A stretch of DNA of 64,000 nucleotides from an uncultured Gammaproteobacteria bacterium (GCA_963695105.1 CAVOGC010000008.1:16030-80029), one strand, 5' to 3'. Counted from the first letter of the stretch, positions 6,911 through 60,700 are shown. The notes: generated by a model from the letters alone, not told the origin. Numbers and translations: made by a program.

Positions 6911-6911
6911 C

Positions 6912-8111
6912 TTAAACCTCCAACGCCCGGGCGGCGATCCAGCCGTCGGCGACGGCCCGCGCCTGTAAGTCACTATCGAGAATCGCCGCAAGTTCCCCGG
7001 CCGCGCTTACGGGCGCCTGCTCCAGAGTATGCTCCACCACGGCGGCGATGTCGGTGAAACGAATGCGCCGTTCGAGGAATGCCTGAACCGCTACTTCGTT
7101 GGCGGCATTCAGCACGGCCGGCGCGGTCCCGCCCGCTTCCAGCGCGGCGAAGGCCAGTCGCAAACAGGGAAAACGGGCAAAATCGGGCGCCTGAAATTCC
7201 AGTTTTCCCAGCCGGGCAAAATCCAGGAAAGTCACTCCGGAAGCCAGCCGCCGCGGCCAGGCCAAGGCGTGGGCGATGGGGGTGCGCATATCGGGATTGC
7301 CCAATTGCGCCAGCACCGAACCGTCCTGATATTCGACCATCGAGTGGATCACGCTCTGCGGATGCACCACCACTTCGATCGCCGCCGTCGGGGCTTCGAA
7401 CAGCCAGTGCGCCTCGATGACCTCCAGTCCTTTGTTCATCATGGTAGCGGAATCGACCGAAATCTTGCGGCCCATGCTCCAGTTGGGATGGGCGCAGGCC
7501 TGCTCGGGGGTGACTTCCGCCAGTTGCGCCAGCGGCGCGATTCGAAACGGCCCGCCGGAGCCGGTCAGTAGAATCCGGCGCACGCCGGCGGCGGCAAGGC
7601 CGGTGCGCGCGAAATCCGCCGGCAGGCATTGAAACACCGCGTTGTGCTCGCTATCGATCGGCAGCAGCTCCGCGCCGTGCTGGCGGATCGCCGTCATGAA
7701 CAGCGGCCCGGCCATGACCAGCGCTTCCTTGTTGGCCAGCAGCACCCGCTTGCCGGCCCGCGCCGCCGCCAGGGTCGGCAGCAAACCCGCCGCGCCGACA
7801 ATGGCCGCCATCACATAAGCGGCTTCGGGCAAGGTCGCCGCACGCTCCAGCCCGGCGACCCCGGCCAGCACCTCGACCGACCGGCCCAGCGCCCGCAACC
7901 GCTCCCGCAACCGTTCGGCGGCGGCGGCATCGGCCAGAACCGCAACATCCGGTTCGTGCGTCAGGCACTGCTGGAACAGCGCCTCGACATCCCGGTGAGC
8001 GGTCAGGGCCACAACCCGAAAACGGTCGGGATGGCGTTGCAGCACATCGAGGGTGCTAACGCCGATCGAACCGGTCGAACCCAGGATGGCGACCCCGATA
8101 CGCTCGCTCAT
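6912..8111 (-). CDS. dxr: 1-deoxy-D-xylulose-5-phosphate reductoisomerase
   Basis: 399 aa, N-terminal GSTGSIG NADPH motif, full-length Dxr architecture. Confidence 0.9.
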
Positions 8112-8917
8112 CCCCGCATTCCGTACAGCCCCAGCAGGAACACCGGCGTGGCGGCGGTCAGGCTGTCGACCCGGTCGAGCACGCCGCCGTGGCCGGGCAA
8201 CAGCGTGCCGCTATCCTTCATGCCGCGCTGTCGCTTCAGCATGCTCTCGAACAGATCTCCGGCGATGGAGAAACCGACCGTCACCATGCAGACCGCCACG
8301 AACCAGGGCCAGCGCGCACCGATATCCAGCACCGCCGCGCCGGCCAGCGCGAACATGAGCGCGGCCATTCCGGCGCCCAGCGCCCCTTCCCAAGTCTTAC
8401 CCGGGCTGATGGCGACCGCCAGCTTGCGCCGCCCCCAGCGGCGGCCGGCGAAATAGGCGCCGATATCGGCGATCCAGACCAGCAGAAACAGGAACAACAC
8501 ATAGGCCGGCCCGAATTCGTCCCGCAACGCCATGAATGCCACCCAGGGCGCGGCCAGCACGATCACGCCGGTCGCCGCGACGGTCGCCGCGCGGTCCCGG
8601 CGTTCAGGGCGCGCGGCGTAGCGCCACATCCAAAATAGAGCATAGCACCAGCCGACCACCACGCAGCCCAGCAAACCGGCGACGAAGGCGGCGTTGCCCA
8701 CCCACGGCCAGAGCGCCAGAATCAGGGTCAGCACCAGCCCACCGTACAGCAGGCGGTGACGCGGCCCGCTCAACCCCGCCAGCCCGGCCCATTCCCAGGC
8801 ACCCAGCAGGATCACCGCCAGCAGCAGCAGACCGAAACCGGCCAGCGGCAGTTTCATCACCGCCCAGACAACCAGCACGGCCAGCACGACCGCCGTCATG
8901 ACTCGCTGTTTAAGCAT
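8108..8917 (-). CDS. cdsA: phosphatidate cytidylyltransferase
   Basis: Polytopic membrane protein starting [13 protein letters not shown]; the 349-aa track ORF (8108..9157) is N-terminally over-extended into uppS; ATG at 8917; stop overlaps dxr start (ATGA). Confidence 0.85.
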
Positions 8918-9677
8918 GTTGGCTTTGCACCACCTGTTCGGCGGTCCGACCGAAGCGCCGCTGCCGGCTGGCGAACGCGGCGCAGGCGGATTCCAGGTCG
9001 CCGTCATCGTAATCGGGCCACAGCCGGTCGGTAAAATACAGTTCGGTGTACGCCATCTGCCACAGCAGAAAATTACTGATGCGCTGCTCGCCGCCGGTAC
9101 GGATGAACAGATCCGGCTCGGGCAGATCGGACAAACAGGTAAAGGAGTGCAGGACACCGGGGGTGATATCGCCTGGCTGCAATCGGCCTTCCAGCACGGC
9201 TTCGGACACCCGGCGCGCCGCCTGGGCCAAGTCCCAGCGCCCGCCGTAGTTGGCGGCGATGACCAGGGTTAAACCGGTGTTGGCGACGGTCCGCCGCTCG
9301 GCCTTGACGATGTAATCCTGCAAGTTTGCGGGAAAGGCACTGTAATCGCCGATGAAGCGCAACCGCACGTTGGCGGTGTCCAGCCGACGAATTTCGCCGC
9401 GCAGGGTGGTCAGAAACAACTTCAACAGCACCTCGACCTCCGGTCGCGGTCGCCGCCAGTTTTCGCTGCTGAAGGCAAACAGCGTCAGCACTTCGATGTC
9501 GCGCTCGCTGCACGCCTGCACGATCCGGCGCACCGCCTTGGCGCCCTCCCGGTGGCCCGCCGTTCGCGGCAGGGACCGCTGCTGCGCCCAGCGGCCGTTG
9601 CCGTCCATGACAATGGCGATGTGGCGAGGTAACGGCTGGCACGGCGCCCGTGGTGGCATCGGGACGTCAACCGACAT
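8910..9677 (-). CDS. uppS: undecaprenyl-diphosphate synthase (isoprenyl transferase)
   Basis: 255 aa, LPRHIAIVMDGNGRWA motif diagnostic of cis-prenyltransferases. Confidence 0.9.
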   Translation of the reverse strand: MSVDVPMPPRAPCQPLPRHIAIVMDGNGRWAQQRSLPRTAGHREGAKAVRRIVQACSERDIEVLTLFAFSSENWRRPRPEVEVLLKLFLTTLRGEIRRLDTANVRLRFIGDYSAFPANLQDYIVKAERRTVANTGLTLVIAANYGGRWDLAQAARRVSEAVLEGRLQPGDITPGVLHSFTCLSDLPEPDLFIRTGGEQRISNFLLWQMAYTELYFTDRLWPDYDDGDLESACAAFASRQRRFGRTAEQVVQSQHA

Positions 9678-9733
9678 TCGAGAGGGTCCTCGTCAGGTTC
9701 GCGCTCACCGCGGCTTGCCCCCGCACCGGCGCT

Positions 9734-10300
9734 TCAAATTTCCATCAATTCGGCTTCCTTGGCCGAAAGCACCTTGTCCACGTCCTGAATGTGCCGGTCG
9801 GTGAGTTTCTGAATCTCATCCTGGGTCTGTCGTTCGGCGTCCTCGGCGATCTTCTTGTCCTTGAGCAAGGCCTTGAGTTGGTTGTTGGCGTCGCGGCGAA
9901 TATTGCGAACCGCCACCTTGGCGCCTTCGCCTTCCTGCCGGACCACCTTGACCAGATCGCGGCGGCGCTCCTCGGTCAACGGTGGCAGCGGCACCCGAAT
10001 GACTGTCCCGGCCGAAGCGGGATTCAACCCCAGATCGGACTTTAAAATGGCCTTCTCAATCGGCCCCACCATGTTTTTTTCCCAGGGCGTCACCAGCAGG
10101 GTGCGCGCGTCGCTGACGCCGACCGAAGCCACTTGGCCAAGTGGCGCTTCGCTGCCGTAGTAGCTGACCGTAATGTGATCCAGCAAGCTGGCATGCGCGC
10201 GCCCGGTCCGCAACTTGGTCAATTCCTGCTTGAGGTTGTCCACGCTCTTGGCCATCCGGTCAGCCGCTTCTTTCTTGATGTCATCGATCATGGTCGTCAT
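9734..10300 (-). CDS. frr: ribosome recycling factor
   Basis: [39 protein letters not shown]; start ATG at 10300 (MTTM) overlaps pyrH stop as ATGA, alternative ATG at 10291; track ORF 9734..10405 over-extended. Confidence 0.9.
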
Positions 10301-11028
10301 TCCCGCACCACAGTGGTGCCCACGCTTTCGCCGCACACGACCCGTACCAGGTCCCCGTGGCGGTTGATGTTGAAAACCTTCAGCGGTATGTCGTTCTCCC
10401 GACACATGACAATGGCCGTGGCGTCCATCACCTGCAGTTTGCGCGCCAGGGCCTCGTCGTAGGTCAGCCGATCGTAACGCACTGCCTTGAGATCCTTGAA
10501 AGGGTCCGCTGAATAGATACCGTCCACCTTGGTCGCCTTGAGCATCACCTCGGCGCTGATCTCGATGGCTCGCAAGCTGGCGGCGGAATCGGTGGTAAAA
10601 AAGGGGTTGCCGGTGCCGGCGGCGAAAATCACCACCCGGCCCTTTTCCAGATGACGGATGGCGCGGCGGCGAATGTAGTCCTCGCAGACTTCGTTGATGC
10701 GGATCGCCGACATCACCCGGGTGAATACCCCCAGCCGTTCCAGGGTATCCTGCATCGCCAACGAGTTCATGACCGTGGCCAGCATGCCCATGTGGTCGGC
10801 CGCGACCCGATCCATCCCCTTCTTGGCCAACCCGGCTCCTCGAAACAGGTTGCCGCCGCCGATGACCATGCCCACCTCAACCCCGAACTGGCACAATTCC
10901 CGCAACTCGCCCGCGATGCGCGCCAGCACATCGGGGTCGATGCCGTAGTCACCCTCGCCCATCAGGACTTCGCCGCTGAGCTTGAGAAGAATCCGCTTGA
11001 ACGCTGGTCTGGAGTTCGGCATGGTCAT
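10297..11028 (-). CDS. pyrH: UMP kinase
   Basis: [14 protein letters not shown]..amino-acid kinase fold; start at internal ATG 11028 ([20 protein letters not shown]). Confidence 0.9.
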
Positions 11029-12884: not shown

Positions 12885-13176
12885 TGCCGAAATTCTCCTC
12901 AAGGATTTGGGGTTAAGCCTCCATCCGCCCCAAGCGACGACCCCCTCATGGGGGCACCCGGTCGCCCGTGCCGGCGAATGTGCGAAGTGTGTGCAACGCT
13001 AGAAGGTTTGCCTAAAAGGCGCGCGCTTTATAACATGGATTGTTCGGGAAAACCAAATGAACCGCCGCCCGCGGGCACTGTCCCAAACACCGCGGCCCGC
13101 TCCGGACGCCGTCCCCCGCCCATCGCCCATATGCCCGTAGACCGACGCCATGTTTCAGAAAAACCCCAGGAAATCG

Positions 13177-13969: not shown

Positions 13970-16708
13970 ATGGCCGTCACCGACATCGCTGTTCCGCCCG
14001 CCGCCGCGCCCGCATTTGCCGTCGGCGCCGAACCGCCGCCGGACAACTTGCGGCGGGCCGAGATCGTCCTGTTCGACGCGGAGGCTTTTACCCGCGATCT
14101 GGCCGCGACCGCCAACTCGCTGGCCGTGTTCCGAACCCTGCTCAAACAGAGCGACGCCCGGTTCAAGGAACTGTTCCAGCAAGGCGTTCCCGCTCACGAG
14201 CTGGTGCCCGCCCGCGCCGGCTTGATGGACGAACTGCTGCGGTTCATCTGGCTGCGGTTTTTCGAGGCCGATACCCCGGATCTGGCGCTGGCGGCGGTCG
14301 GAGGCTACGGTCGCGGCGAGCTGCATCCGGGCTCGGATGTGGACATCACGATTCTGCTGGACGAGCAGGCGCTGGAAGCTCGCCGTTCCGGGCTGGAAGA
14401 TTTTCTAACCTTCCTGTGGGATATCGGGCTGGAAGTCGGGCACAGCGTGCGCACGCTTGAGGACTGCGTCCACGAAGGCGCCGCCGACATCACGGTCGCC
14501 ACCAGTCTGATGGAGGCGCGGTTGTTAACCGGCTCATCGGCGTTGTTCGAGCAGATGCGCGCCGCCACCGGTCCCGACCGCATCTGGCCCGATGCCGCCT
14601 TCTTTGAATCCAAGCAGCGGGAACGCAGCCAGCGCTGCCATAAATACAACGAAACCGCCTTCAACCTGGAGCCCAATATCAAGGACGGCCCCGGCGGGCT
14701 GCGCGATATGCAGATGATCGGCTGGGTGGCCAAACGGCATTTCGGCGCCAGCACCCTGCAGGAACTGGTGAGCCACGGCTTCCTCAGCCCGAGCGAATAC
14801 GACGAGCTGATCGACTGCCGCAATTTTCTTTGGCAGGTGCGCTTCGCCCTGCACGCGCTGACCGGCCGCCGCGAAGACATGCTGCTGTTCGATCACCAGC
14901 GCCGGATCGCCCAACAGTTCGGCTACCGGGATCAGGATCACAACCTGGCGGTCGAGCAGTTCATGCAGCGCTACTACCGCACCGTCAACGCGCTCAGCCG
15001 GCTGAACGAGATGCTGCTGCAACTGTTCGAGGAGGCGATCCTGCTGGCCGGCGAACCGGGCGAACCGCAGCCTATCAACCGCCGCTTCCAGGTCCGCCGC
15101 GGCTACCTGGAAGTGACCCAGCCCAACGTGTTTCTGCGTTACCCGTTCGCGCTGCTGGAGATTTTTCTGGTCTTGCAGCAACACCCGGAAATCAAGGGCC
15201 TGCGCGCCTCCACCATTCGCCTGATCCGCGATCACCGGCCGCTGATCGACGACAAGTTCCGCAACGACGTGCGCCCGCGCAGCCTGTTTATGGAAATCCT
15301 GCGCCAACCGCACGGGGTAACGCTGCAACTGCGGCTAATGAACGCCTACGGCGTGCTGCCGGCCTACCTGCCGGAATTTGGCAACATCCTCGGGCGGATG
15401 CAATACGACCTGTTCCACGCCTACACCGTTGACCAGCATATCCTGTTCGTGGTGCGCAACCTGCGGCGGTTTTTCCTCCGCCGGTTCGCCCAGCAGGATT
15501 CCGAATACGGCGCGATCATGGAGCAATTGCCCAAGCCCGAGCTGCTCTACATCGCCGGTCTGTACCACGACATCGCCAAGGGGCGTGGCGGCGACCATTC
15601 CATCCTGGGCGCTCAGGACGCCGAACGGTTCTGCCGCCAGCACGGGCTCAGCAGTTTCGATACCCGGCTGGTGGCCTGGCTGGTGCGTCACCACCTGACT
15701 CTGTCGCTGACCGCGCAGAAAAAAGATATCCACGACCCGGACGTCATCCATCAATTCGCCCTGCAAATGGGCGATCAGATGCATCTGGATTACCTTTACC
15801 TGCTCACGGTCGCCGATATCCGCGGCACCAATCCCCACCTGTGGAACACTTGGCGGGCGTCGCTGCTGTGGACATTGTACAAGGCCACCCGCCAGGCGTT
15901 GCGGCGCGGGCTGGACCACCCGATCGACAAGGAGGAACGCATCCGCGAAGCGCAGGCGCAGGCACGGCAGCGGCTGCGCGCCACCAAAATCGATGAGGAG
16001 CGTATCAATCGAGTGTGGGAAGGCTTCGGCGACGACTATTTCCTGCGTCATTCCGCCGACGAGATCGTCTGGCACACTCGCGCAATCCTCAAGAAAGGGC
16101 ATAACGAACGGTCGCTGGTCATGGCCCGCGACGATCCCGGCCGGGGTGGCACCGAGGTCTTTATTTACACCCGCGACCAGGACAACCTGTTCGCGCTGAT
16201 CACCTCCATCCTCGACCAGCTGGGACTGACCATTCTCGATGCCCGCATCATCACCGGCCACAGCGGTTACACCCTGGACAGCTTTACGGTACTGGAGGAC
16301 TCCGGCTCGCCGATCCGCGACCGACGGCGGATCAAGGAAATCACCTCCACTCTGCTGCACTATCTGGGCCGGCCGGACATAACGCCGCCGGTACCCAACC
16401 GCCATATTTCCCGAATTCAGAAAGCATTCCAGATGCCGACCTTGGTTTCGTTCCGCGAGGATCAGGCCAACGGCCGCACCTTGGTGGAACTGGTGTCCTG
16501 GGACCGGCCGGGGCTATTGTGCCAGGTTGGCCAGGTATTTATGGAATGCGGGGTGCAGGTGCATAACGCCAAGATCGCCACCATCGGCGCCCGGGCCGAG
16601 GACGTATTCTTCGTCACCGACCGGGACAACCTGCCCTTGAACAACTCGGAAAAATACACGGCGCTCAGAGCGGCGCTGGTCGAACAACTGGATTCGGGCG
16701 AAGAATGA
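13970..16708 (+). CDS. glnD: bifunctional [protein-PII] uridylyltransferase/uridylyl-removing enzyme
   Basis: 912 aa; nucleotidyltransferase N-domain (GGYGRGELHPGSDVD), HD domain, two C-terminal ACT domains; follows map as in enterics. Confidence 0.9.
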   Translation: MAVTDIAVPPAAAPAFAVGAEPPPDNLRRAEIVLFDAEAFTRDLAATANSLAVFRTLLKQSDARFKELFQQGVPAHELVPARAGLMDELLRFIWLRFFEADTPDLALAAVGGYGRGELHPGSDVDITILLDEQALEARRSGLEDFLTFLWDIGLEVGHSVRTLEDCVHEGAADITVATSLMEARLLTGSSALFEQMRAATGPDRIWPDAAFFESKQRERSQRCHKYNETAFNLEPNIKDGPGGLRDMQMIGWVAKRHFGASTLQELVSHGFLSPSEYDELIDCRNFLWQVRFALHALTGRREDMLLFDHQRRIAQQFGYRDQDHNLAVEQFMQRYYRTVNALSRLNEMLLQLFEEAILLAGEPGEPQPINRRFQVRRGYLEVTQPNVFLRYPFALLEIFLVLQQHPEIKGLRASTIRLIRDHRPLIDDKFRNDVRPRSLFMEILRQPHGVTLQLRLMNAYGVLPAYLPEFGNILGRMQYDLFHAYTVDQHILFVVRNLRRFFLRRFAQQDSEYGAIMEQLPKPELLYIAGLYHDIAKGRGGDHSILGAQDAERFCRQHGLSSFDTRLVAWLVRHHLTLSLTAQKKDIHDPDVIHQFALQMGDQMHLDYLYLLTVADIRGTNPHLWNTWRASLLWTLYKATRQALRRGLDHPIDKEERIREAQAQARQRLRATKIDEERINRVWEGFGDDYFLRHSADEIVWHTRAILKKGHNERSLVMARDDPGRGGTEVFIYTRDQDNLFALITSILDQLGLTILDARIITGHSGYTLDSFTVLEDSGSPIRDRRRIKEITSTLLHYLGRPDITPPVPNRHISRIQKAFQMPTLVSFREDQANGRTLVELVSWDRPGLLCQVGQVFMECGVQVHNAKIATIGARAEDVFFVTDRDNLPLNNSEKYTALRAALVEQLDSGEE

Positions 16709-49449: not shown

Positions 49450-49614
49450 ATGCCGTGGCGCATCGCTGGGATCATTCTCCCGGTGTTCGCCGCCGCCGGC
49501 ATCGGCTGGTTGTACGCCCGCTGGAAACGGCCGGACCTTGCCCCCCTCAACCAGATCAACATGGACGTGCTGGCGCCGCTCCTGGTGTTCTGGGCGATCG
49601 AACCATCGCGTCTC
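49450..49614 (+). pseudogene. N-terminal fragment of an AEC-family (auxin efflux carrier-like) transporter
   Basis: MPWRIAGIILPVFAAAGIGWLYARWKRPDLAPLNQINMDVLAPLLVFWAI resembles AEC transporter N-termini; beyond about 49610 the ORF is just antisense of hlyIII. Confidence 0.4.
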
Positions 49615-50229
49615 ACGCGACAAAAAAAGAATCGTCACGTAATGACTGACGCTGCCGGCCAGCACGAACAAATGCCAGATGCCGTGAAAATGTCTGACCT
49701 TCTCGTCAAACACATAGAAAACCAGGCCAACGGTATAAAACAGGCCGCCCGCCAACAGCCAGATGAAGCCTTCCCATGGCAGGGCTTGCAGCAGCGGTTT
49801 GAGCGCCACCAACACCAACCAGCCCATCAGCACATAAACCACCAATGACAGGACGCGATTGCCTTTTTGGGGCAGCGATTCCAGCGCGATCCCCAACACC
49901 ACCAAACCCCAAATAATACCGAATATCGTCCAACCCCAACCGCCGCGCAGGGTGACCAGGGTAAAAGGGGTATAAGTGCCGGCGATCAGGAAATAAATCG
50001 AGTAATGATCCAGCTTGTGAAAAAACCGTTTTGCCCGACCGCGCAAGCTGTGATAAAGCGTGGAAACGGTGTAAAGCAGAAATAGAGTGGTTCCGTAAAC
50101 GCTGAAGCTCACGATCTTCCACGGATCGCCCTGCCGCGCCGCCACCACCACCACGACCACCAAACCCGCCAGCGCCGCCACCGCGCCGATCAAATGGCTA
50201 ATGCTATTAAAACGCTCACCCTTGTACAT
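49600..50229 (-). CDS. hemolysin III family (HlyIII/PAQR-like) membrane protein; as sequenced the frame stays open to 48580
   Basis: MYKGERFNSISHLIG..HYSIYFLIAGTYTPF..HGIWHLFVLAGSVSHY typical HlyIII; start ATG 50229; expected C-terminus near an A7 run (49611-49617). Confidence 0.7.
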
Positions 50230-50344: not shown

Positions 50345-53300
50345 TCAACGCTTTCTGCCCCCGCTCCGTTTGCGCCGCGCCCCACTCTTGGCCGCCGCCT
50401 CCCGCAACCGCACCGCCCCCACCTCGCCGATACCCGCTTTCCGGCCCGCCTCGGTCAGATAAACCCGGCGGAAGGGAATCACCCTGCCGTCGCGACTGAA
50501 GGCGTCCTCGCGCAATTCGAGCAGACCGGCGCCGGTCATCGCCTCCAACAGTCGTTCGAACTCCCGCCGCTCGACCCCCTCCGTCAGCCTTTCGCACAAC
50601 TGCCGGGGCGTTTGACCCTCGCGCCAGCGTAGCGCGTCCAGCACCTGCAAGGCCCGTTCGCTCTCGACCCGATTCAGCCGGCGGGTGCGCCGGATCGTCG
50701 CCGCCTCCGGCGCGCACACGTCGCAGATCCCACAGGGCTGGTCGTCGTCCCGGTCGCCGAAATGCCGCACCAGCCGGACCATGCGGCAACCGGTCGCCTG
50801 ATCGGCAAAATCCAGAATCTGCTTCAACTCGCTCAGCTTGTGCTCACGCTGCCGCTGGTAGGGCGGACACCAGCCGTCCTCGCCGCGACTGAGGTTGCCC
50901 TCGACATCGCGCCGGGCGCCGCCATGCACCAGCAGCTTTTCCACGGCGGCATCGAACTCCTCCAGCGCCATGCCCGACCGGTCGCGCAACAGCACCCGGG
51001 GTTGAGGATCGCCGCCGAGCGCCTGAAAGATCGCCGCCAGCCGCTCCGGGTCGGGGTAGCCGCGCCGGAAGAAAAACTCGTGGGTGCGCAGATCGGCATA
51101 GGAATACAGCAGGATGGCGCGGGCCGGCTGACCGTCGCGCCCGGCGCGACCGATTTCCTGGTAATAACCCTCGACGCTGCCCGGCAGGGCGGTATGAATC
51201 ACGGTGCGGATATCCGGCTTGTCGATGCCCATGCCGAACGCGATGGTGGCGACGATCACCTGCAAGCGGCTGGCGCCGAACAACCCTTGCACCCGCTCGC
51301 GCTCCTGCGGCGTCATCCCGGCGTGATAGGCGGCAGCCGGATAATTCGCCCCCAGTTCCAGCGCCAGCAACTCGGTTTCCTTGCGAGTCGGCGCGTAGAC
51401 GATGGCGGGCCGGCGATCCGGATCGGCCAGCACCCGCCCGACCGCCGCATGCCGGTCGGCCATCGGCGTTTCCACCGTCTCGACCGCCAGATTGGCGCGA
51501 CGAAAGCCGTGGATGTAGCGCATCGCCTCCGGCATGTCGAGCTGGCGCACGATGTCGTCCTGCACCAGCACGGTGGCGGTCGCGGTCAGCGCGATCACCG
51601 GCGCCGGCCGCAACAGGGGCAAATGCCGGCCCAGCATCCGGTAGTCCGGGCGGAAATCGTGACCCCACTGCGAGATGCAGTGCGCCTCGTCGACCGCGAT
51701 CAGGGCCGGCTTGCGCTTGGCCAGCATTTCGGGAAAACCGGGCACGCTCAGCCGCTCCGGCGCAATGAACAGATAATCCAGTTGGCCCTGCAAATACTCG
51801 ACGCACACCTGACGCGACGTGGCCCGGTCGCGGCCGGAGTGGATGCGTTCGGCCCGCAGGCCCAGCTCGCACAATTTGGTGACCTGATCTTCCATCAGCG
51901 CGATCAGCGGCGAAACCACCAGCGTCGTCCCCGCCCGGGCGATGCCGGGCAACTGAAAGCACAGCGACTTGCCGGCGCCGGTCGGCATCACCAGCAACAC
52001 GTCCCGGCCCTCGGTCACGGTCCGGCACACCTGTTCCTGATACGGACGAAAGGCTGGCAAGCGAAACTCGCTGTGCAGCAACTCCAGCAGACGGTCCACC
52101 GGCACCGGTTCCCGTCGCGGCGCGGCTTCTCGACTCTCCCCTCCTCCATCGATGGCGAGGGGGTTGGAGGGTGAGATCGGCCGCGCCACCGCGAACGCCT
52201 GGACCACCGCTTCGCCGACGTAACCGGCGATGGCGGTCATGAACCCGTCCAGATCTCCCTCGCCGCGCTGGATGCGCTTCAGCCGCGCTTCCCACTCGCC
52301 GGTCATGATCGGGCTTTTAATCGGTGGCTGCACCGCCTGAATCAAGCCAATGCCGCGCTCGGTGGCGTTCAGCGCTTTGCCGTCGCGAGTCAGATACCGG
52401 CGTTTGAGCAAAGTTTCGATGATGTCGGCGCGGGTGGCCGGCGTGCCCAGCCCGCTGTCCTTCATCGCCGCCGACAGCTCCTTGTCCTCCAGAGCCCGGC
52501 CGGCGGTTTCCATCGCGGTGAGCAGGGCCGCTTCGGTCAGACGCGGCGGCGGCCGGGTCTGCTTGGCCAGCTCGCGGACGTCCAGCACCCGCAACGGCTG
52601 GCCAACGGTCAACCCCGGCGGCAGGCTTTGTTCGGCCTCGTTCTCCTCGGTTGCCGCGCCAGCCTTGGCCTTGGCCTTGCGCGTGCCGGCGGCTTTTTCC
52701 GCCGCCGGCACGGTTTGCACCTCCAATACCTTCCAACCGACCTGCTCCACCGCCGTGCCGCTGCTGTGATAGCGATCGACCACGATCACGCCATCCGCTT
52801 CGCTCGTGGCGATCGCGGTGATCAGCGTGGTCACCGCCCAGAGGTGATCGTCGTGCCAGGCCATCAACAACCGGCGGCAGATCAGGTCGTAAATTTTCCG
52901 CTCGTCGGCGCTCAAGGCGGCACGCGCCGGCAGCGGGGTGGGAATGATGGCGTGATGGTCGGTCACTTTGCCGTCGTCGACGAAGCGCTTGCCCAAGAGG
53001 CGCTGGCCGCAGCCCGGCCCCAACCGGTCCTGATAGGGTGGCTGGATCGCCGCGACCACCGCGCCCAGCGTCGCCGCGACCGCGCTGGACAGATGGCGGC
53101 TGTCGGTGCGCGGGTAGCTGATCAGCTTGTGCTGCTCGTACAGCTTCTGGGCGAGGTCCAGCGTGGTCTGGGCGCTGAAGCCGTATAGCCGGTTGGCGTG
53201 GCGCTGCAATTCGGTCAGGTCGTACAGCAGGGGCGGGGCGGCGCGGCGGGTTTCGGCGGTACGGGATTCGACGGCGGCCTTTCCCGTCTGGGCGCGGGCG

Positions 53301-54151
53301 ACGATGCGCCCGGCTTCCTCGCCGTCGGCGAGCAGGCGTTTGGCCTTGGGCTCGGGGCGTTCGCCGCGAAACCAGACGCCCTGGTAGCGCGGTTCCTTCT
53401 CTTCCGGCCACTCTCCCACAGGGAGAGCCCTCACCCCCAACCCCTCTCCCGCTGGCGGGAGAGAGGAGTTTTGGGGCGCGAAAGTCGCCACCACTTCCCG
53501 GTAATCTTCAGGCACGAAAGCGCGAATCGCCAGGTCCCGCTCCACCACCACCGCCAGGGTCGGGGTCTGCACCCGTCCAACCGACAGCGCCTCATCGCCC
53601 GGCGCGCCGCAGGCCAGGGTATAGGCCCGCGACAGATTCATGCCCACCAGCCAGTCGGCCTGACTGCGGCCGCGGGCGGCGGCGGCCAGCGGATCGAACT
53701 CGCAACTGTCGCGCAAATGCTGGAAGCCCTGGCGGATGGCGTCGGGGGTCAGCGAGGAAATCCACAGCCGGCTGAACGGCTTGCGGCAACCGGCGGCTTC
53801 GTAGAGATAACGGAAAATCAATTCGCCCTCGCGGCCGGCGTCGGTGGCGCAGATCACCCGCTCGATAGCCTCGTCGTTGAGGATGCGGCGGACCGCCTCA
53901 AACTGATCGCGGGTTTGCTCGCCGACCACCAGCGGCCAGCGTTCGGGCAGCAGTGGCAACAGTTCGCGCCGCCAGCGCTTCCAGGCCGGATCGATCTCGT
54001 GCGGCTCGGCCAACCGCACCAAATGACCGACCGCCCAGGTGACGACGTAGCCGTTACCGTGCAGGAAACCTTCGCCGCGCTGGCGGGCGCCCAGCACCTT
54101 GGCGATATCTCGGGCGACGGAAGGCTTTTCGGCAACGACCGCAATACTCAT
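50345..54151 (-). CDS. DNA topoisomerase III (TopB, type IA) fused in-frame to a full-length RecQ-family helicase
   Basis: Single uninterrupted 1271-codon ORF. N-terminal 640 aa collinear with E. coli TopB (AEKPSVARDIA, GHLVRLAEP, VGRVQTPTLAVVVERD, LISYPRTDSRHL, DHHAIIPT); C-terminal 590 aa is RecQ (FRPYQEQ, MPTGAGKSLCFQLP, DEAHCISQWGHDFRPDY, helicase C, RQC zinc motif CGICDVC). Start ATG 54151 (MSIAVV) overlaps stop of upstream receiver gene as ATGA; upstream ATG 54160 also possible. Confidence 0.8.
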   Translation of the reverse strand: MSIAVVAEKPSVARDIAKVLGARQRGEGFLHGNGYVVTWAVGHLVRLAEPHEIDPAWKRWRRELLPLLPERWPLVVGEQTRDQFEAVRRILNDEAIERVICATDAGREGELIFRYLYEAAGCRKPFSRLWISSLTPDAIRQGFQHLRDSCEFDPLAAAARGRSQADWLVGMNLSRAYTLACGAPGDEALSVGRVQTPTLAVVVERDLAIRAFVPEDYREVVATFAPQNSSLPPAGEGLGVRALPVGEWPEEKEPRYQGVWFRGERPEPKAKRLLADGEEAGRIVARAQTGKAAVESRTAETRRAAPPLLYDLTELQRHANRLYGFSAQTTLDLAQKLYEQHKLISYPRTDSRHLSSAVAATLGAVVAAIQPPYQDRLGPGCGQRLLGKRFVDDGKVTDHHAIIPTPLPARAALSADERKIYDLICRRLLMAWHDDHLWAVTTLITAIATSEADGVIVVDRYHSSGTAVEQVGWKVLEVQTVPAAEKAAGTRKAKAKAGAATEENEAEQSLPPGLTVGQPLRVLDVRELAKQTRPPPRLTEAALLTAMETAGRALEDKELSAAMKDSGLGTPATRADIIETLLKRRYLTRDGKALNATERGIGLIQAVQPPIKSPIMTGEWEARLKRIQRGEGDLDGFMTAIAGYVGEAVVQAFAVARPISPSNPLAIDGGGESREAAPRREPVPVDRLLELLHSEFRLPAFRPYQEQVCRTVTEGRDVLLVMPTGAGKSLCFQLPGIARAGTTLVVSPLIALMEDQVTKLCELGLRAERIHSGRDRATSRQVCVEYLQGQLDYLFIAPERLSVPGFPEMLAKRKPALIAVDEAHCISQWGHDFRPDYRMLGRHLPLLRPAPVIALTATATVLVQDDIVRQLDMPEAMRYIHGFRRANLAVETVETPMADRHAAVGRVLADPDRRPAIVYAPTRKETELLALELGANYPAAAYHAGMTPQERERVQGLFGASRLQVIVATIAFGMGIDKPDIRTVIHTALPGSVEGYYQEIGRAGRDGQPARAILLYSYADLRTHEFFFRRGYPDPERLAAIFQALGGDPQPRVLLRDRSGMALEEFDAAVEKLLVHGGARRDVEGNLSRGEDGWCPPYQRQREHKLSELKQILDFADQATGCRMVRLVRHFGDRDDDQPCGICDVCAPEAATIRRTRRLNRVESERALQVLDALRWREGQTPRQLCERLTEGVERREFERLLEAMTGAGLLELREDAFSRDGRVIPFRRVYLTEAGRKAGIGEVGAVRLREAAAKSGARRKRSGGRKR

Positions 54152-54462
54152 AACCGGCATGGGGCCGAAGCCGGCCGGCGGTCGTTCCCTCCGGTCCCGC
54201 TATCCGGTTCATGGAGAGCGCCCCGCGCCATGGCGATCTTGACAAACTCCTCGTCCGGGACCGCGCGGGAGAAATAGACACCCTGCCCGTACTTGCAGCC
54301 CAGGATCAGGTCACAGCCGGTCGTGGCAACCATCTGGAGCGCCTCCTCGCCGTTGTCCGCCGCCATCACGGCGAACCCGTCCCACTCCAGAGCCTTTCTG
54401 GCGAGCAGGCGCATCATGGGATCGTCGTCCGCCACCAGGACACTCGCCCTTCCGTTGTCCAT
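54148..54462 (-). CDS. degenerate single-domain response-regulator receiver (internally shortened, phosphoacceptor Asp absent)
   Basis: [54 protein letters not shown] then G instead of acceptor D and only about 8 residues before a beta5/alpha5-like GVYFSRAVPDEEFVKIA; ATG overlaps HK stop (ATGA). Confidence 0.55.
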   Translation of the reverse strand: MDNGRASVLVADDDPMMRLLARKALEWDGFAVMAADNGEEALQMVATTGCDLILGCKYGQGVYFSRAVPDEEFVKIAMARGALHEPDSGTGGNDRRPASAPCRL

Positions 54463-57284
54463 CAGCTTTTCTCCAGCACGGCTCGCAGAGCGGCTTCCAC
54501 TCGGTTGAATTGTTGACACAAGGTCTGAATGGGCTCAGTGGCCCGCTCGGACTGGCCGGCGCGGACGGCGGTCTCGATCTCGTGGCAGCGGGCCGCGAAA
54601 TCCAGGGCGCCGATGTTGGTGCTGCTCGCTTTCAGGGTGTGGGCGGCGCGAATCAGCGTTTCCCGGTCCGCCGTGGCGTGGGCGGTCTCGGCGGCTCCCA
54701 CCAGCGTCCGGCCGTTGTCCAGGTACAGCCCGATCACCTTGGCCAGCAGGTCGGGTTCACCCGGCGCTTGCAGGGCGCGGATCGCCGCCAGCGCGGCCGG
54801 GTCGAGCGCGGCCGGGTCGAGCGCGGCCTGGGCGTCCGGCGCGGCCGTGGCCGGCGGAACCTCGGCGGGCGGCGATGGGGACGCGGTCTCGGGCGCGGCG
54901 GTTGCGAGCGCGCCGGGCGCCCAGCGTCGCAGTATCGCCACCAGTTCGGTTTGGTTATACGGTTTGGCGAGGAAGTCGTCCATGCCGCAGGCCAGACAGT
55001 CCTCCCGGTCGCCCTGCAGCGCATTGGCGGTCAGGGCGACGATGGGAAGGCGCCGCGCCGCCGGTTCCCGCGCGCGGAGGCGGCGAGTGGCTTCGTAGCC
55101 GTCCATGACCGGCATCTGACAATCCATCAACACCAGGTCGAAATCGGCGTCCGCCACGGCGTCCAGGGCTTCCCCGCCATCGTTGGCCAACACCACCCGA
55201 CAGCCCAGTTGCTCCAACTGCTCCAGGGTCAGGACCTGGTTCACCGGGTTGTCTTCGACCAGCAGTACGCGGGTACCGGGGAAAACCGCGGTGGGGGTGG
55301 CGTCCGGGTTGGAAGCGCCGGCTTCGACGGACTGGGACAGTCCGGCGGCGACCATCAGGGCTTCGAGCAGCTCGCGCGGTTCCACGGGCTTGTGGAGCAC
55401 CGCCTCAAAACCGGCCTGCTGGAGCTGGCGCGCGCCCTGTCGATCCGGACGGACGCACACGAGGATGACGTGAGCCTGGACCAGGCTGGGGTGATCGCGC
55501 AGAGCGCACGCCTGGGCCAAGCTTTCCGGGCTGGCCATGTCCATGGCGAGCAGCACGAAGCGGTAGGGCGCGCCGGCGGCCGCGACCGCCCGCGCCATGG
55601 ACAGGACCGCACCGCTATCGCGCGTTCGATCGGCCCGCAGGCCCAGCGCGCCCAGTTGTCCGACCAGGACCGCGCCCGCGGTCGGGTTGTCATCGACGAC
55701 CAGGGTGTTCGACTCGCGCAGGGAATCCGGCGCGACGAGCGGGGTGGCCGCCTCCAGTTCGGGCACGCTGGCCGTGAACCAGAAGGTCGAACCGTGTCCC
55801 GGCTGGCTTTCCACCCCCACCTGGCCGCCCATGAGGCGAGCGAGATCCTGACTGACCGCAAGCCCCAGACCGGTGCCGCCGAACCGGCGGGCATGGGAGC
55901 TGTCCGCCTGGGAAAAGGGCTGGAACAACTTGGGCAGCACCTCGGCGGCGATGCCCATCCCGGTGTCGCGCACGCTGAACTTGAGCACGATCCGCCGATC
56001 CTCCCCCTCTGGCGCGGCAACCCGTTCCAACCGCAGAACCACCTCGCCGCGCTGAGTAAACTTGATGGCATTGCTCACCAGGTTGGTGAGGATCTGACGC
56101 AGGCGATTGGGATCGGCGCACACCTGCCGAGGCGTCGCCGGCGTGACCTCGCAGATCAGCTCGATGTCCTTCTCCCGCGCGCGTGGGAGCAGCAAGCCCG
56201 CCACATCGAACAATAGGCTGCTGGGGTCGCACGGAATGGTCTCCAATTCCATGCGACCCGCCTCGATCTTGGAAAAATCCAGGATGTCGTTGATGACGCG
56301 CAACAGGCTGTTGGCGGAACCCCGGATGTGCTCCAGGAAACGGCGCTGGCGCTCGTTCAGGGGCGTGTCGGCGAGCAGTTCCGCCATGCCCATCACCCCG
56401 TTCATGGGCGTGCGAATCTCGTGGCTCATGGTGGCCAGGAAGCGGGATTTCGCCCGGCTGCCTTCTTCGGCGGCTTCCTTGGCCACCAACAGCTCGGCAT
56501 CCCGGGCCTGGATCTGGTTCAGCATGGTGTTGAAGCCGTCGATCAAGGTGCCGATCTCGTCGTTGGCGGTACGGGCGACGCGCAGGGAATAATCCTTGGT
56601 CTCCGACACGGCGCGCATCCGCTCGGCCAGATCGGTGATGGGCGTCGAGATCAGCCGTTGCAGGCGGGCGGCGAGCAGGGTGGCGATGGCGAAGGCCAGC
56701 ACCAGCACGGCCAGGGCGAGCAGGATGCGGTTCTTTACCGTATGCGCCAGGCGGGACAGGTCCAGATAGATTTCAAGGCTACCCACCACCTTGTCGTTGA
56801 CCCGGATGGGCTGGCCTACTTCAAGGTAATGCAGGCCGCTGGTGTACAGAAACGGGCTTGTGAAATCGGCGTCGCGATGCCGCTCTTTCGCCCCATTCGG
56901 AGATGGACCATGATCGTCGTGGCTGTCGTGGCCGCGGATTTCCAGCAGCCGGTCGGCGTGACTGGGGTTCGCGCTTTCGTAGCGGGCGAACACATGCCCA
57001 TCGGGGGTGATCAGGATGGCGGCGATCACCTCCGGCTCGCTGCCCAGGGCCGCGAGGATTTCACCGGCCGCATCGGGGTCGCGAAAGGACAGGGCCGCCG
57101 CGCTGTTGACGCCCACCACCCGGGTCAGGGAGGCGGCGTATTCCTGCTTGGCACGCCAAGTGGCGGACAGCTCGCTGATCAGCAGGGCCAGCAGGGCGAC
57201 CGCCAGTCCGATGCTGGTGGTGATCAGCGCGATGGCGATGATTTTGCGCCGGATGGACAGATTGCGCAGGAAGTTCGAATTCAT
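54462..57284 (-). CDS. hybrid sensor histidine kinase/response regulator (TM-periplasmic sensor-HAMP-HisKA-HATPase-REC-REC-Hpt)
   Basis: 940 aa; HisKA H-box [18 protein letters not shown], HATPase N/G boxes, two receiver domains (LVVDDNP.., [25 protein letters not shown]), C-terminal Hpt. Confidence 0.9.
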
Positions 57285-57904
57285 GGCGCCTCGCCGCCCT
57301 TGCCGTCATGGATCCGGGTAGCCAGATTCAGCAGCTTGGAGCTGATCCGCAGTTGCGCTCGCGCCGCCGCGTCCAGATTGATGAGGGGATGCACCCGGCC
57401 TTGCTTGCGGATCAGGGCGATGGCGCCGCCCTCGACCGCGAAATTTTCCAGATCGCTGACGGTGAGCACGCCCACCGCCGCCGCCCGGCTCACCAGCGCC
57501 TGGTTGGCGGCCGAGGCCAGGTCAGCCCGGTCCAGGTAGAGCACATGGCATTCCGCCAGGTTGCCGGGATTCACTTGGCGGACCACCGTCAGCGGACGGC
57601 CGTCCAGGGTCTCGCCCCGAATCACCTTGTCGAGCACCGTGGCCAGCTCGTCGTCCAACACGCAATAGCGAAACGGCTGGGACGACCGGCGCGCGGGGGT
57701 GTCCGGCCAGCGCACGAAGTGGGCGAAGTTGTAGACGAACACGGCCTTGACCTCGATTTCGGCAAAGCGATCCGACGCCAGGCCGGCGGCGCCCACCGGA
57801 CCCGGCGCAAATAAGACCAGCGCCAGCACCCACGGCGATACCCACGAACGCCACGGGGCAAGGCGTCCTGGCGGCGGGGCGCGTTTCTGGATTTCGGCTT
57901 GCAT
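57281..57904 (-). CDS. YfiR-like periplasmic protein (DUF4154)
   Basis: 207 aa from ATG 57904 with signal peptide; [16 protein letters not shown] motif typical of DUF4154; stop overlaps HK start (ATGA). Track ORF 57281..59017 is over-extended. Confidence 0.65.
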
Positions 57905-57924
57905 GGATGGGTTTCGCCGTCGGG

Positions 57925-59925
57925 TCAAAAGCGCCAGTTCACCATCAAATAAAATTCCCGGGAGATGAGATAGGCATCGCTGGCGGCGATCGCGGGGGTC
58001 CCGTATTCCAAGTGGCTGGGTCCCAGCAGATTGCGGCCAACCAGCGCCAGCTCCAGATCCTGGTCGGCCCGCCAGCCCAGGCGCGCGTCGGCGGTGAAGT
58101 AGGCTTTGACGGCGTAGGCGGGCAGCTCGCCGACATAGCGCGCTTGCACGTCCAGTGCCAGATCGCGACCGAGGTCCAGATTCGAGATGAGGCTGAATTG
58201 GTGACGTGGGGATTCGCCCTCGGCCCGCTTCGGGGACAGTTCGGTATTGTCCGGCTTCGGGTCGAGGTCGATGCTCAAATAGGAATAGGCCGCCCGCAGA
58301 CGCCACGCATCCCACGGGCGGTAGTCGGCGGCCAGCTCGAAGCCGTGGGTCCAGCCTTGCAGGTTGTTGCCCACCTTGCTCGGCCAAAGCAGGTAGGGGG
58401 ACGGCAGGGGCACGAGCGTCGGCGAACCGATCATGTCGATGGAAACCAGCCGGTCGTAGTCGCTCAGGAAAGCGGTGACGTCCAGACCCAGTTGGGGCGT
58501 CACTGGCAAGCGGTAACCAAGCTCGTAGCTGGTGAGGAGCTCGGCATCCAAATTGGCGTTGCCTCTGGACAGAATCACCAGCGGCAGATCCGAAGTCGCC
58601 GGGCTGGGCGGGATCAGCGAAATCAAAGTCCCGCTGTCCTCGATCAGGGAGGGCGTGCGCACGGCGCGGGAGATCGCGGCCCACAGGGTGCCGCGACCCG
58701 GCGGCGACCAGCGCAACCGGGCCGATGGCTGCCATTCCAGGCCGGTGAAATCGTTGTGTTCCGCTTTCACGCCCAAGGTCAGATAGAGCTGGTCCGGCAT
58801 CAGGGTGATGTCGTCCTGAACGAAGGCGCTGAACAACTAGTCGGTCCGGCGCGGATCGGCGATGGCGGTGGGGGCGATTGCATCGACATCCAGCCTGACT
58901 GCTCGATAACTCAGTCCGGCGACCAGATTGTGCGCCCCCATAGTGGGAAACTGGTGGCAATAAGCCAGATCCAGCGTATCCACGACCGCCTCGGCGGCGT
59001 TGCCGACAACCTGCCATTTGTCCAGGCTGAAACGGTGGATGTAGCTCTGAAACACATCCTTGGCGCCGTCCGCCGAAACCGTTTCCCAGTAGCCCAGCAG
59101 ATGACCGCCGCTGTACTGGCGTTCGCTACCCACGCGCTCGCGATAAAGCTCGCCCTGGACCATCAGGGCGGCGTCGCCCAAATCCCAATCGCCGCGAAAA
59201 CCGCTGCGCCCGCCGCTCCAGTCCAAATCGGGGGCTTGACTCGGAAAGGCTTGTTCCAGGCCATCCTGCTGGTGGACCTTGGCATAGAGGCGAGCATGAC
59301 CGCTCTCCCCGAGCTTGAAGCCGGTGCGCGCCACCAGTTCGGACTGCTGGTCGCCCCCCACCGCGCTCACCAGCGTGCCTTGGGTATCCTCGGCGGGCTT
59401 GGTAATGATGTTGATGACGCCGTTGACCGCGTTCGCGCCCCAGGTGGCGCCACCGGGACCGCGCACCACTTCGATGCGCTCCACATCCCGCAGGACGATA
59501 TTCTGCTCGTCCCAGATCACGCCGGAGAACAGGGGCGTGTAGAGGCTGCGGCCGTCCACCATCACCAGGAGTTTGTTGGCGAACTGGTTGTTGAAGCCGC
59601 GCGAGCTCACCGCCCATTCCGAGGCGCTGAGGCGCGCCACGTCGAGACCCGGCACCGTGCACAGCAGCTCTGGCAGGGTGGTGGCGCCGGAACGGCGGAT
59701 ATCCTCGGCGGTGATCACATACACCGCCGCCGCCGTGTCTTCCAGACGTTCCAGGCGGTTCGAGGCAATGGAGACGCGCAAATCGGCCAGTTCGTCCAGA
59801 CTCATCTGTTTGAGGGCGCTCAAACTGTCCGCGCCGGCGTTGGCGCTGGCCAAGACAAGGGCGAACCGCAGGGCCAGCGCCGGTCCGCCACCGGAGCGCG
59901 GGATCGAGCGGTCGTTTCTGTTCAT
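57925..59925 (-). pseudogene. TonB-dependent receptor interrupted by a single in-frame TAG (58837-58839)
   Basis: ORF 58837..59925 = signal peptide + plug domain; ORF 57925..58836 = rest of beta-barrel ending in aromatic F; both in the same frame, separated only by TAG within ACTAGT (..ADPRRTD * LFSAFVQDD..); combined length 666 aa. Confidence 0.75.
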
Positions 59926-60036
59926 GAGGTTTTTTTCGGGGAATTATCAATTGTCATTGGTGATCCGTGGTCGAGACAGGCGATCACCGTTTCGCCAAGT
60001 GGCGCTTGCCCGTGATCCATCGGCGCCTTCCTCCAA

Positions 60037-60322: not shown

Positions 60323-60700
60323 TCAGTCCGCCAGCGCCGGTTTCCAGGTCCACTGTTCGCCCGGCTCCGCACCGGTCGCGGCCCGCCAGCTCGACTCCAA
60401 ATCTTCTTCGACCCGCTCCACCACCGCGCCGTCCAACCGCTTCTGCCGGACAAAAGCCCGCAACATCTCCAGAATCCGGGCCGGGGACAGCGGCTGCCGG
60501 TAAGGCCGCTGTTGCGCCAGTGCCTGAAACACGTCGGCCACGGCGATGATCCGTATTTCCAGGGTCAGCTCCGCGCCGCCGCGATGGAACGGATAGCCCT
60601 GGCCATCGAGCGTCTCGTGATGGTAGGCGACCCAGACCGCGATGTCCTCCAGACCGTCGATGCCGCGCAGGATCTGGGATGTGATAAGGCGCCTGATTGC
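60323..60700 (-). pseudogene. C-terminal fragment of an HD-GYP phosphodiesterase (no HD motif/N-terminal half)
   Basis: ..VAYHHETLDGQGYPFHRGGAELTLEIRIIAVADVFQALAQQRPYRQ.. = HD-GYP C-terminal signature; upstream part of track ORF 60323..61309 is frame-overlap with mtnA. Confidence 0.5.

Follow-up and report, generated by a model that had tools for sequence, protein, structure and literature searches.

Why should a gene for a DNA topoisomerase-helicase stand last in a string of genes for periplasmic sensing and signal transduction? The question is raised by positions 50345-59925 of a 64,000-nucleotide (nt) stretch of DNA from an uncultured Gammaproteobacteria bacterium (GCA_963695105.1 CAVOGC010000008.1:16030-80029; this whole stretch is called the window), where a gene encoding topoisomerase III (Topo III) and RecQ in one polypeptide lies directly behind genes for a TonB-dependent receptor, a DUF4154 protein, a hybrid histidine kinase and a receiver-like protein. 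A first interpretation, made from the window alone (the sequence-only reading), had taken the string for one translationally coupled signalling operon with the topB::recQ fusion gene as its distal member. We consider it probable that the block upstream of the fusion gene is a partly decayed recombination product, a scarred mosaic lodged between an HD-GYP gene and the fusion gene, and that the conserved partner of the fusion gene in this bacterial family is an enzyme of cyclic di-GMP (c-di-GMP) turnover, not the kinase.

The gene string and its junctions

The order and domains that had been described were recovered: an open reading frame (ORF) scan combined with Pfam domain assignment found five co-directional reading frames on the minus strand.

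59925-57925, minus strand: TonB-dependent receptor gene (Plug 59925-58837, beta-barrel 58836-57925; Pfam)
57904-57281, minus strand: gene for a DUF4154 (YfiR/HmsC-like) periplasmic protein of 207 amino acids (aa) (Pfam DUF4154, 129 bits)
57284-54462, minus strand: hybrid histidine kinase gene, 940 aa, apparently intact (CHASE8-HAMP-HisKA-HATPase-pseudo-receiver-REC-Hpt; Pfam)
54462-54148, minus strand: 104-aa ORF, remnant of a REC-PAS-GGDEF-EAL response regulator gene (Pfam, BLASTP)
54151-50345, minus strand: Topo III-RecQ fusion gene, intact, 1268 aa (Toprim, Topoisom_bac, DEAD, Helicase_C, RecQ_Zn_bind)

The premature stop noticed earlier in the receptor gene is present as an in-frame TAG at 58839-58837, between the Plug half and the barrel half, so that the module lacks an intact receptor; alignment with two paralogues identified it as a single CAG-to-TAG change at a conserved glutamine (DQLFSAF in both paralogues). 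ATGA overlaps had been proposed for every junction, which holds for the DUF4154 and kinase genes (4 nt, 57284-57281) and for the 104-aa ORF and the fusion gene (54151-54148), whereas the kinase gene and the 104-aa ORF share one base (TGATG at 54464-54460) and the receptor and DUF4154 genes are separated by a 20-nt gap with no overlap. An alternative ATG at 54160 is possible for the fusion gene; the N-termini of homologues (MSIAVVAEKP) favour 54151. Stop and start thus overlap or abut, as in an operon, at three junctions. Neighbouring co-directional genes in bacteria most often overlap by four bases or by one, and for this reason these overlaps alone are not beyond expectation. A pattern scan of the minus strand showed no terminator-like site from the receptor gene to the stop of the fusion gene (59.9-50.3 kb), and no riboswitch (c-di-GMP classes included) or tRNA was found near the cluster in Rfam and tRNA scans.

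The regulator remnant and the scars around the block

The frame between the kinase and fusion genes had been described as a degenerate REC. Degenerate it is, but instead of a small receiver it consists of the two ends of a REC-PAS-GGDEF-EAL regulator joined together. In Pfam the ORF matches only positions 1-47 of 111 of the REC profile, and its tail has no match even at E = 10, with no PAS, GGDEF or EAL. Intact regulator homologues were collected by phmmer on 1.8 billion representative proteins and then compared by BLASTP, and it was through these intact proteins that the tail was identified as EAL. Residues 1-54 of the ORF correspond to residues 4-57 of an 812-aa protein of REC-PAS-GGDEF-EAL architecture (P0246; 57%, BLASTP), and residues 54-77 to its residues 775-798 (58%), at the end of the EAL domain. 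The same two-ended match was obtained with the regulators that precede the fusion gene at three other loci (L091, L093 and L095). The deletion joint reads ...CDLIL|GCKYGQG... at nt 54312-54292 (GACCTGATCCTG|GGCTGCAAG), and the ORF is therefore a response regulator gene of approximately 800 aa from which an in-frame deletion removed about 720 codons (~2.1 kb). The phospho-acceptor aspartate, which comes just after DLIL in the intact proteins, is absent. A complete phosphorelay, comprising a receiver with its aspartate and an output domain, is not found in the window, because the regulator remnant has lost both this residue and the output domains.

The way in which the remnant ends bears on the proposed translational coupling. 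Intact regulators stop two or three residues past ...GAL/GAI; the ORF of the window continues for about 20 codons and ends at the first stop that it meets, the TGA inside the ATGAGT start of the fusion gene. An embedded TGA at this start is common to the relatives (GTGAGC, ATGAGC, ATGACC), and at locus L089 the HD-GYP gene likewise ends on it. Because the TGA is built into the start of the fusion gene, any upstream ORF in that frame stops there. Of the coupling, the stop/start overlaps are present, whereas the last ATGA is an incidental by-product of decay, left where the remnant ORF overran its original end, and not a selected coupling device.

Compared with loci L081 and L084, the window is collinear on both sides, from 64000 to 60677 (mtnA side) and from 54150 to 49608 (fusion gene and hlyIII); the exceptions are the 6-kb block and a set of remnants at 60677-60117. 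The block is bounded as follows.

60677-60323, minus strand: 3' remnant of an HD-GYP gene, 355 nt, 91% identical to L081 9637-9991
60313-60278, minus strand: duplicate of the first 36 nt of the fusion gene, beginning GTG AGC like the gene of the nearest relatives (direct repeat D7)
60282-60117, minus strand: decayed duplicate of fusion gene nt ~314-479, identical at 143/166 positions to the fusion gene of the window
60119-60025, minus strand: relic of a kinase 3' end, 95 nt, 72% identical, running into a regulator-like start (direct repeat D2)

The HD-GYP gene has lost its 5' 908 nt together with 84 nt of upstream spacer, and synteny with L081/L084 resumes at 60677. The 36-nt duplicate (34/35 identical to the window's own copy) is joined to the 60282-60117 fragment through a 277-nt deletion. 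This fragment is identical to L081 and L084 at 136/166 positions; it has derived states in common with the fusion gene of the window and also carries unique substitutions, and its translation departs from residues that the family keeps invariant. The sequence at 60119-60025 is what is left of another kinase-regulator junction, on the left margin of the inserted block. The G+C content of the block (0.663) equals that of its flanks, which fits an origin within the family.

These scars suggest a history whose order of events we infer as follows. A family ancestor would have carried HD-GYP, regulator and fusion genes in this order, and the clade of the window would have lost the regulator and carried mtnA-HD-GYP-fusion-HlyIII. 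A segment with a kinase module and a response regulator, coming from a regulator-type locus, would then have been inserted between the HD-GYP and fusion genes, most likely with the 5' end of the fusion gene as homology arm, leaving a duplicate of that end; direct repeats bracketing the block in this way would be expected after a single homologous crossover or after a duplicative insertion. Subsequent decay would have removed most of the HD-GYP gene, cut the duplicate of the fusion gene, gutted the regulator by ~2.1 kb and introduced the amber codon in the receptor gene. The DUF4154, kinase and fusion genes are probably still functional. The fusion gene may now be transcribed by read-through from the kinase module, since the region that lay upstream of it ancestrally is either gone or 6 kb away, with no terminator-like site between the receptor gene and its stop. 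The copy in the window would thus offer a worked example of a tidy 'translationally coupled operon' that is a decayed recombination product, and overlapping stops and starts alone are no evidence of function.

Several features lie at the edges of the same region. Upstream of the receptor start, at ~59930-59965 on the minus strand, the region's only AT-rich spot (CAATGACAATTGATAATTCC) includes GACAAT-T-GATAAT, which on inspection resembles two Fur-box hexamers. A repeat array follows the fusion gene.

50344-50253, minus strand: (GGGGTTC)x13 heptamer array, directly after the stop of the fusion gene and ~25 nt before hlyIII (TRF)

The array, which looks perfect, is a recent expansion, as only two copies are present there in L084 and none in L081; with its runs of four G spaced by TTC it may fold into G-quadruplexes, a curious feature beside a RecQ gene. 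Near the 3' end of hlyIII, the T-run at 49613-49631 is one base shorter than in L081, which puts the stop out of frame so that the ORF continues for ~350 codons. Beyond hlyIII (about 49595-49608), the window lacks ~760 nt that L081 has (14533-15292, the greater part of a Mem_trans permease gene). Either several lesions have accumulated in the genome, or homopolymer and other errors are present in the assembly. Elsewhere, the sole Rfam match in the window is a t44 RNA at 12912-13002 on the minus strand (69 bits; gathering score 44).

The neighbourhood of the fusion gene in Competibacteraceae and beyond

Nearly all homologues of the fusion protein at 69-90% identity are named Candidatus Competibacteraceae, Competibacter or Contendobacter, and the window comes from a Competibacteraceae genome. 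The kinase block is absent from the closest relatives, P0002 and P0004 (90% identity) and P0008 (82%). These three carry, 9-27 nt upstream of the fusion gene, a gene for a tandem-HD protein of 414-420 aa with the HHExxDGxGYP motif (HD-GYP), and in the nearest relatives the fusion gene is usually followed by hlyIII (HD-GYP-fusion-HlyIII). The full string of the window is found again in a more distant relative, P0049 (77%; L091/L092), as receptor-DUF4154-CHASE8 kinase-regulator-fusion, with an intact response regulator and gaps of 38, 12, 4 and 9 nt; it is present on at least 24 contigs, one of them of 3.9 Mb. Uniqueness of the adjacency to one strain had been named as a result that would make it fortuitous, and the recurrence of the string in P0049 with its gaps of 4-38 nt speaks against this. 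Other members of the family have a regulator before the fusion gene (Ca. Competibacter denitrificans, P0075, and L095), an HD-GYP gene followed by a regulator (P0057) or an HD-GYP gene directly (P0017, L094 and Ca. Contendobacter odensis, P0040); L001 is the only family lineage sampled with neither.

Counted by lineage, 12 Competibacteraceae were compared: six have HD-GYP only, two the response regulator only, one both, two the kinase module with a regulator (one being the window) and one none. A gene for a c-di-GMP enzyme therefore lies directly upstream of the fusion gene in 11 of the 12, and the kinase module in only two. The claim that the fusion gene belongs to a signalling neighbourhood stands at the level of the family, but its conserved partner there is the c-di-GMP enzyme, not the kinase. 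The outer flanks vary among lineages, both upstream (mtnA, DUF805, exosortase genes, DsbD, alcohol dehydrogenase) and downstream (hlyIII, UbiD, hemerythrin, PMSR, DUF350); despite these varied flanks, the neighbourhood proteins are orthologous, with 62-84% identity for the HD-GYP proteins and 59-70% for the regulators. In a neighbour-joining tree of the fusion protein the regulator-bearing lineages are basal, and the window falls inside the HD-GYP-only clade beside L081/L084. The HD-GYP-regulator-fusion order is probably ancestral in the family. Loci L175 (4109-11792) and L095 (5100-13801) share the upstream genes MoCF_biosynth-purU-DsbD_2, and the HD-GYP-regulator-fusion order of the first compared with the regulator-fusion order of the second shows how one partner has been cleanly lost while the rest of the locus stayed the same.

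Whether fusion genes elsewhere are linked to histidine kinase genes had been proposed as a comparison. Such a linkage exists in P0049, but not in the nearest relatives, and among the matches listed none of 55 fusion loci of other species has a kinase, REC, DUF4154, TonB-receptor, HD-GYP or GGDEF-EAL gene beside the fusion gene. Almost all of these 55 loci are from other phyla; one (L001) is from Competibacteraceae and is counted also within the 12 lineages. No family is common to more than two of their upstream neighbours. In high-GC loci, greedy ORF picking sometimes took a shadow ORF as the upstream neighbour (L083), and neighbours were cross-checked by tblastn.

The kinase module itself belongs to a common type. 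The DUF4154 gene lies directly upstream of the CHASE8 kinase gene (CHASE8, 54.9 bits), a pairing also present in L086, L087, L088 and L091; on the NCBIfam model NF053592 ('sensor histidine kinase, YfiR-like protein-associated') the window's kinase scores 168 bits, the cut-off being 194. Its nearest homologue, P0122 (71% identity; dN/dS, the ratio of non-synonymous to synonymous substitution rates, 0.38), is followed by a convergent gene and does not lie beside a fusion gene. The window's kinase is also ~47% identical to P0128 and P0132, from receptor-DUF4154-kinase cassettes that end with the kinase, away from fusion genes, and in summed bits it is no closer to the P0049 kinase (692) than to these (735 and 726). 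Similarly, the DUF4154 protein of the window is 46-51% identical to those of P0128/P0132, which are not fusion-linked, and 31% identical to that of P0049. Because identities are higher to fusion-unlinked modules, the modules of the window and of P0049 are different paralogues. In our view a common type of cassette was recruited twice to the same regulator; a single ancestral five-gene operon fits these identities less well. In the intact clusters, a periplasmic signal would be received through CHASE8, with the YfiR-like protein and perhaps also the TonB receptor as modulators, and would pass by a His-Asp-His(Hpt) relay to the REC domain of the regulator, with a change in c-di-GMP synthesis or breakdown as outcome; the kinase module would thus be the sensor of the regulator. 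In the window, the signalling chain would end at the kinase.

Two other accounts of the adjacency have to be set beside a decayed recombination product. That receptor, DUF4154, kinase, REC and fusion genes form a selected, translationally coupled operon, by which a periplasm-sensing two-component system controls a DNA enzyme, would agree with genes that overlap or nearly abut with no terminator-like site between them, with the same order around an intact regulator in P0049, with a signalling gene in front of the fusion gene in 11 of 12 lineages, and with the exchange of an EAL-type for an HD-GYP-type partner in some lineages, which resembles a maintained functional pairing. We regard it as unlikely, since in the window the regulator has neither phospho-acceptor aspartate nor output domains and the receptor gene has a stop, since the kinase modules, limited to two lineages, are different paralogues that the nearest relatives do not have, since no such neighbour was found at the 55 loci, and since the ATGA between remnant and fusion gene arose by overrun into the TGA of the start. 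A fortuitous adjacency or an assembly chimera, in which two unrelated regions were joined and the neighbourhood is not conserved, is very improbable. It could account for the three closest relatives without the block, for a junction that falls exactly at the start codon of the fusion gene and for a single-assembly contig in which several lesions may be errors. However, with the synteny to L081/L084 on both sides a chimera would need two joins back to the same locus, and the duplicate of the 5' end of the fusion gene, 86% identical to the intact copy and with substitutions of its own, is too diverged to mislead an assembler; chance would leave unexplained why the tail of the remnant is homologous to the tails of the regulators preceding the fusion gene in L091, L093 and L095, and why the full string recurs in P0049. 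A strain-specific fortuitous insertion, considered in view of the three nearest relatives and the synteny breaks, was rejected on account of the regulator-fusion pairs and the full string in distant Competibacteraceae.

The recombination account also has observations to its detriment. No donor-type stretch was found at the 5' end of the fusion gene except the ATGAGT start in place of GTGAGC: with the six initial bases set aside, the 5' 600 nt most resemble L081/L084, and the remnant most resembles the fusion gene of the window. The window appears to be metagenome-derived, and the receptor TAG and the hlyIII T-run frameshift could be assembly or consensus errors. A pattern scan found no sigma-70-like promoter anywhere in the 11.5 kb scanned, and since it was empty throughout it cannot say where transcription of the fusion gene starts. 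Lastly, the 12 lineages sampled are related, and 11 of 12 does not mean 11 independent events. A decayed recombination product nevertheless remains for us the probable origin of the block.

A wider proposal is that the fusion gene and the upstream c-di-GMP enzymes form a functional unit, in which second-messenger signals on the state of the cell envelope or of the floc/biofilm would set how much of a single-chain 'dissolvasome' is present or how active it is. The lasting pair amid changing flanks and the EAL-to-HD-GYP partner swap are compatible with such a unit, as also with simple inherited synteny, and we consider the proposal quite doubtful. If true, it would be a direct link from c-di-GMP signalling to recombination or chromosome unlinking; no paper linking c-di-GMP with RecQ or a topoisomerase was found in the literature searched. 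The family-wide pairing is a testable hint that connects second-messenger signalling to DNA processing, and it is this pairing, together with the widespread fusion, that seems worth following, the operon claim for the window being of modest interest.

The fusion protein and its likeness to known systems

Residues 5-681 of the fusion protein align end to end with Escherichia coli Topo III (1D6M, E 5e-92) and residues 690-1021 with the E. coli RecQ core (1OYW, E 1e-84); no solved chain carrying both halves was found by alignment to PDB structures. The Topo III half matches Topoisom_bac (337 bits) and Toprim (39.5 bits) in Pfam and passes the topB models TIGR01056 (550 bits, cut-off 516) and NF005829 (640, cut-off 597). 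The RecQ half matches DEAD, Helicase_C and RecQ_Zn_bind and passes the recQ_fam model TIGR00614 (371 bits, cut-off 220), but stays below the cut-off of the RecQ equivalog model TIGR01389 (425 bits, cut-off 640). HRDC (PF00570) is found neither in the window's protein nor in homologues of at least 68% identity; more distant fusions have it. In an alignment of 13 homologues, the catalytic tyrosine (SYPRTDS), the Toprim glutamate (AEKPS), Walker A (PTGAGKS), DEAH and the four zinc-binding cysteines are invariant. The Toprim DxD motif, D103-P-D105 in E. coli, reads D104-A-G106, the glycine being invariant in the 13 homologues down to 64%. The dN/dS of the fusion gene is 0.13-0.14 against the 90% relatives, the same value as between those relatives; the gene is under purifying selection and has therefore been maintained.

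An identical database entry of the protein exists on one 121-kb contig only; a separate look-up for an exact match gave none. More distant full-length fusions are numerous, at about 50-66% identity, and at least about 60 loci match both halves in a scan of one genome per species; the hosts among the matches listed include Bryobacterales, Terriglobia, Thermoanaerobaculia, Myxococcota, Oligoflexia, Acetobacteraceae, Solirubrobacteraceae and others. A metagenome scan with the fusion protein added at least two loci from Competibacteraceae, among listed matches taken up by generic RecQ peptide patterns. The sources are assorted environmental metagenomes, with a wastewater metagenome among those of Competibacteraceae. 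Public annotation calls the protein only 'DNA topoisomerase 3' or RecQ, and no paper describing a natural Topo III-RecQ fusion was found in the literature searched. This widespread family is apparently undescribed.

One defence-system model gives a different name to the protein: PADLOC model PDLC02865, 'DpdF', matches it with 1587 bits, as if it were the helicase of Dpd (7-deazaguanine DNA modification) defence or another anti-phage component. Such an identity is scarcely credible, since the protein reaches 196 bits on the curated NCBIfam DpdF model NF041063 (cut-off 550) but passes the topB and recQ_fam models, and since no Dpd or other defence genes adjoin the fusion gene in the window or in the annotated neighbourhoods of its relatives; PDLC02865 (1499 positions) looks like a cluster of such fusions drawn in through RecQ homology. 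Given this match, defence-system annotators would probably tag these fusions DpdF. Candidate defence genes with no link to the present finding were seen downstream of the fusion gene in L083 (Trypco2, TIR_2 and AAA; L083 20931-23807) and beside a kinase module in L088 (a 1464-aa TIR-CHAT-TPR protein; 6495-10889).

The signalling part of the locus can be compared with two known systems. In Pseudomonas aeruginosa, YfiR acts in the periplasm to repress the diguanylate cyclase YfiN (PMC3375315, PMC4655355). As in YfiBNR/HmsCDE, a DUF4154/YfiR-like gene overlaps and lies upstream of a membrane sensor gene and the output is a c-di-GMP enzyme, but here its place is taken by a CHASE8 hybrid kinase predicted to act via Hpt on a separate REC-PAS-GGDEF-EAL protein, instead of a directly controlled cyclase; a TonB-dependent receptor stands in for the YfiB lipoprotein, and in the window the output protein has been destroyed. 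No relevant report on DUF4154 with a kinase and a TonB receptor was found in the literature searched. In the RpfC-RpfG system, a hybrid kinase with REC and Hpt feeds a response regulator for c-di-GMP turnover. RpfG is REC-HD-GYP, and the Rpf cluster includes no DNA enzyme. The likeness lies in the relay from a hybrid kinase (REC and Hpt) to a c-di-GMP response regulator; in contrast, the regulator here combines REC with PAS, GGDEF and EAL, and no receiver domain is present in the neighbouring HD-GYP protein.

RecQ helicases and type IA topoisomerases cooperate from bacteria to humans, in a chemistry of helicase-driven unlinking through single-strand passage. The two enzyme families of the fusion are those of E. 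coli RecQ with Topo III and SSB, of yeast Sgs1-Top3-Rmi1 and of the human BLM-TopoIIIalpha-RMI 'dissolvasome', and the fusion protein is most likely a single-chain version of this partnership. By analogy, its RecQ motor would unwind or branch-migrate DNA while the type IA domain passes single strands, and the expected outcome would be decatenation or the dissolution of linked recombination or replication intermediates. It has kept the catalytic tyrosine, the Toprim glutamate, Walker A, DEAH and the zinc-cysteine cluster. It differs in being one polypeptide with Topo III N-terminal and an activity predicted from sequence, in the absence of HRDC from the window's clade and in the invariant glycine at the second DxD aspartate (E. 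coli D105). The fusion could serve as a ready-made single-chain model for helicase-topoisomerase coupling.

Reverse gyrase is likewise a natural fusion of a helicase-like protein of superfamily 2 with a type IA topoisomerase, and hyperthermophiles have been described as unique in fusing RecQ-like and type IA units in this form (PMC7245102). The order of the halves is opposite: the helicase is N-terminal in reverse gyrase, whereas here Topo III (5-681) is followed by RecQ (690-1021). The fusion protein scores 82 bits on the rgy model TIGR01054 (cut-off 472), its helicase half is a true RecQ, and its hosts (Competibacteraceae, Acidobacteriota, Myxococcota) are not known hyperthermophiles. In conclusion, Competibacteraceae and at least about 60 species-level genomes carry a true Topo III and a true RecQ fused in the order opposite to that of reverse gyrase.

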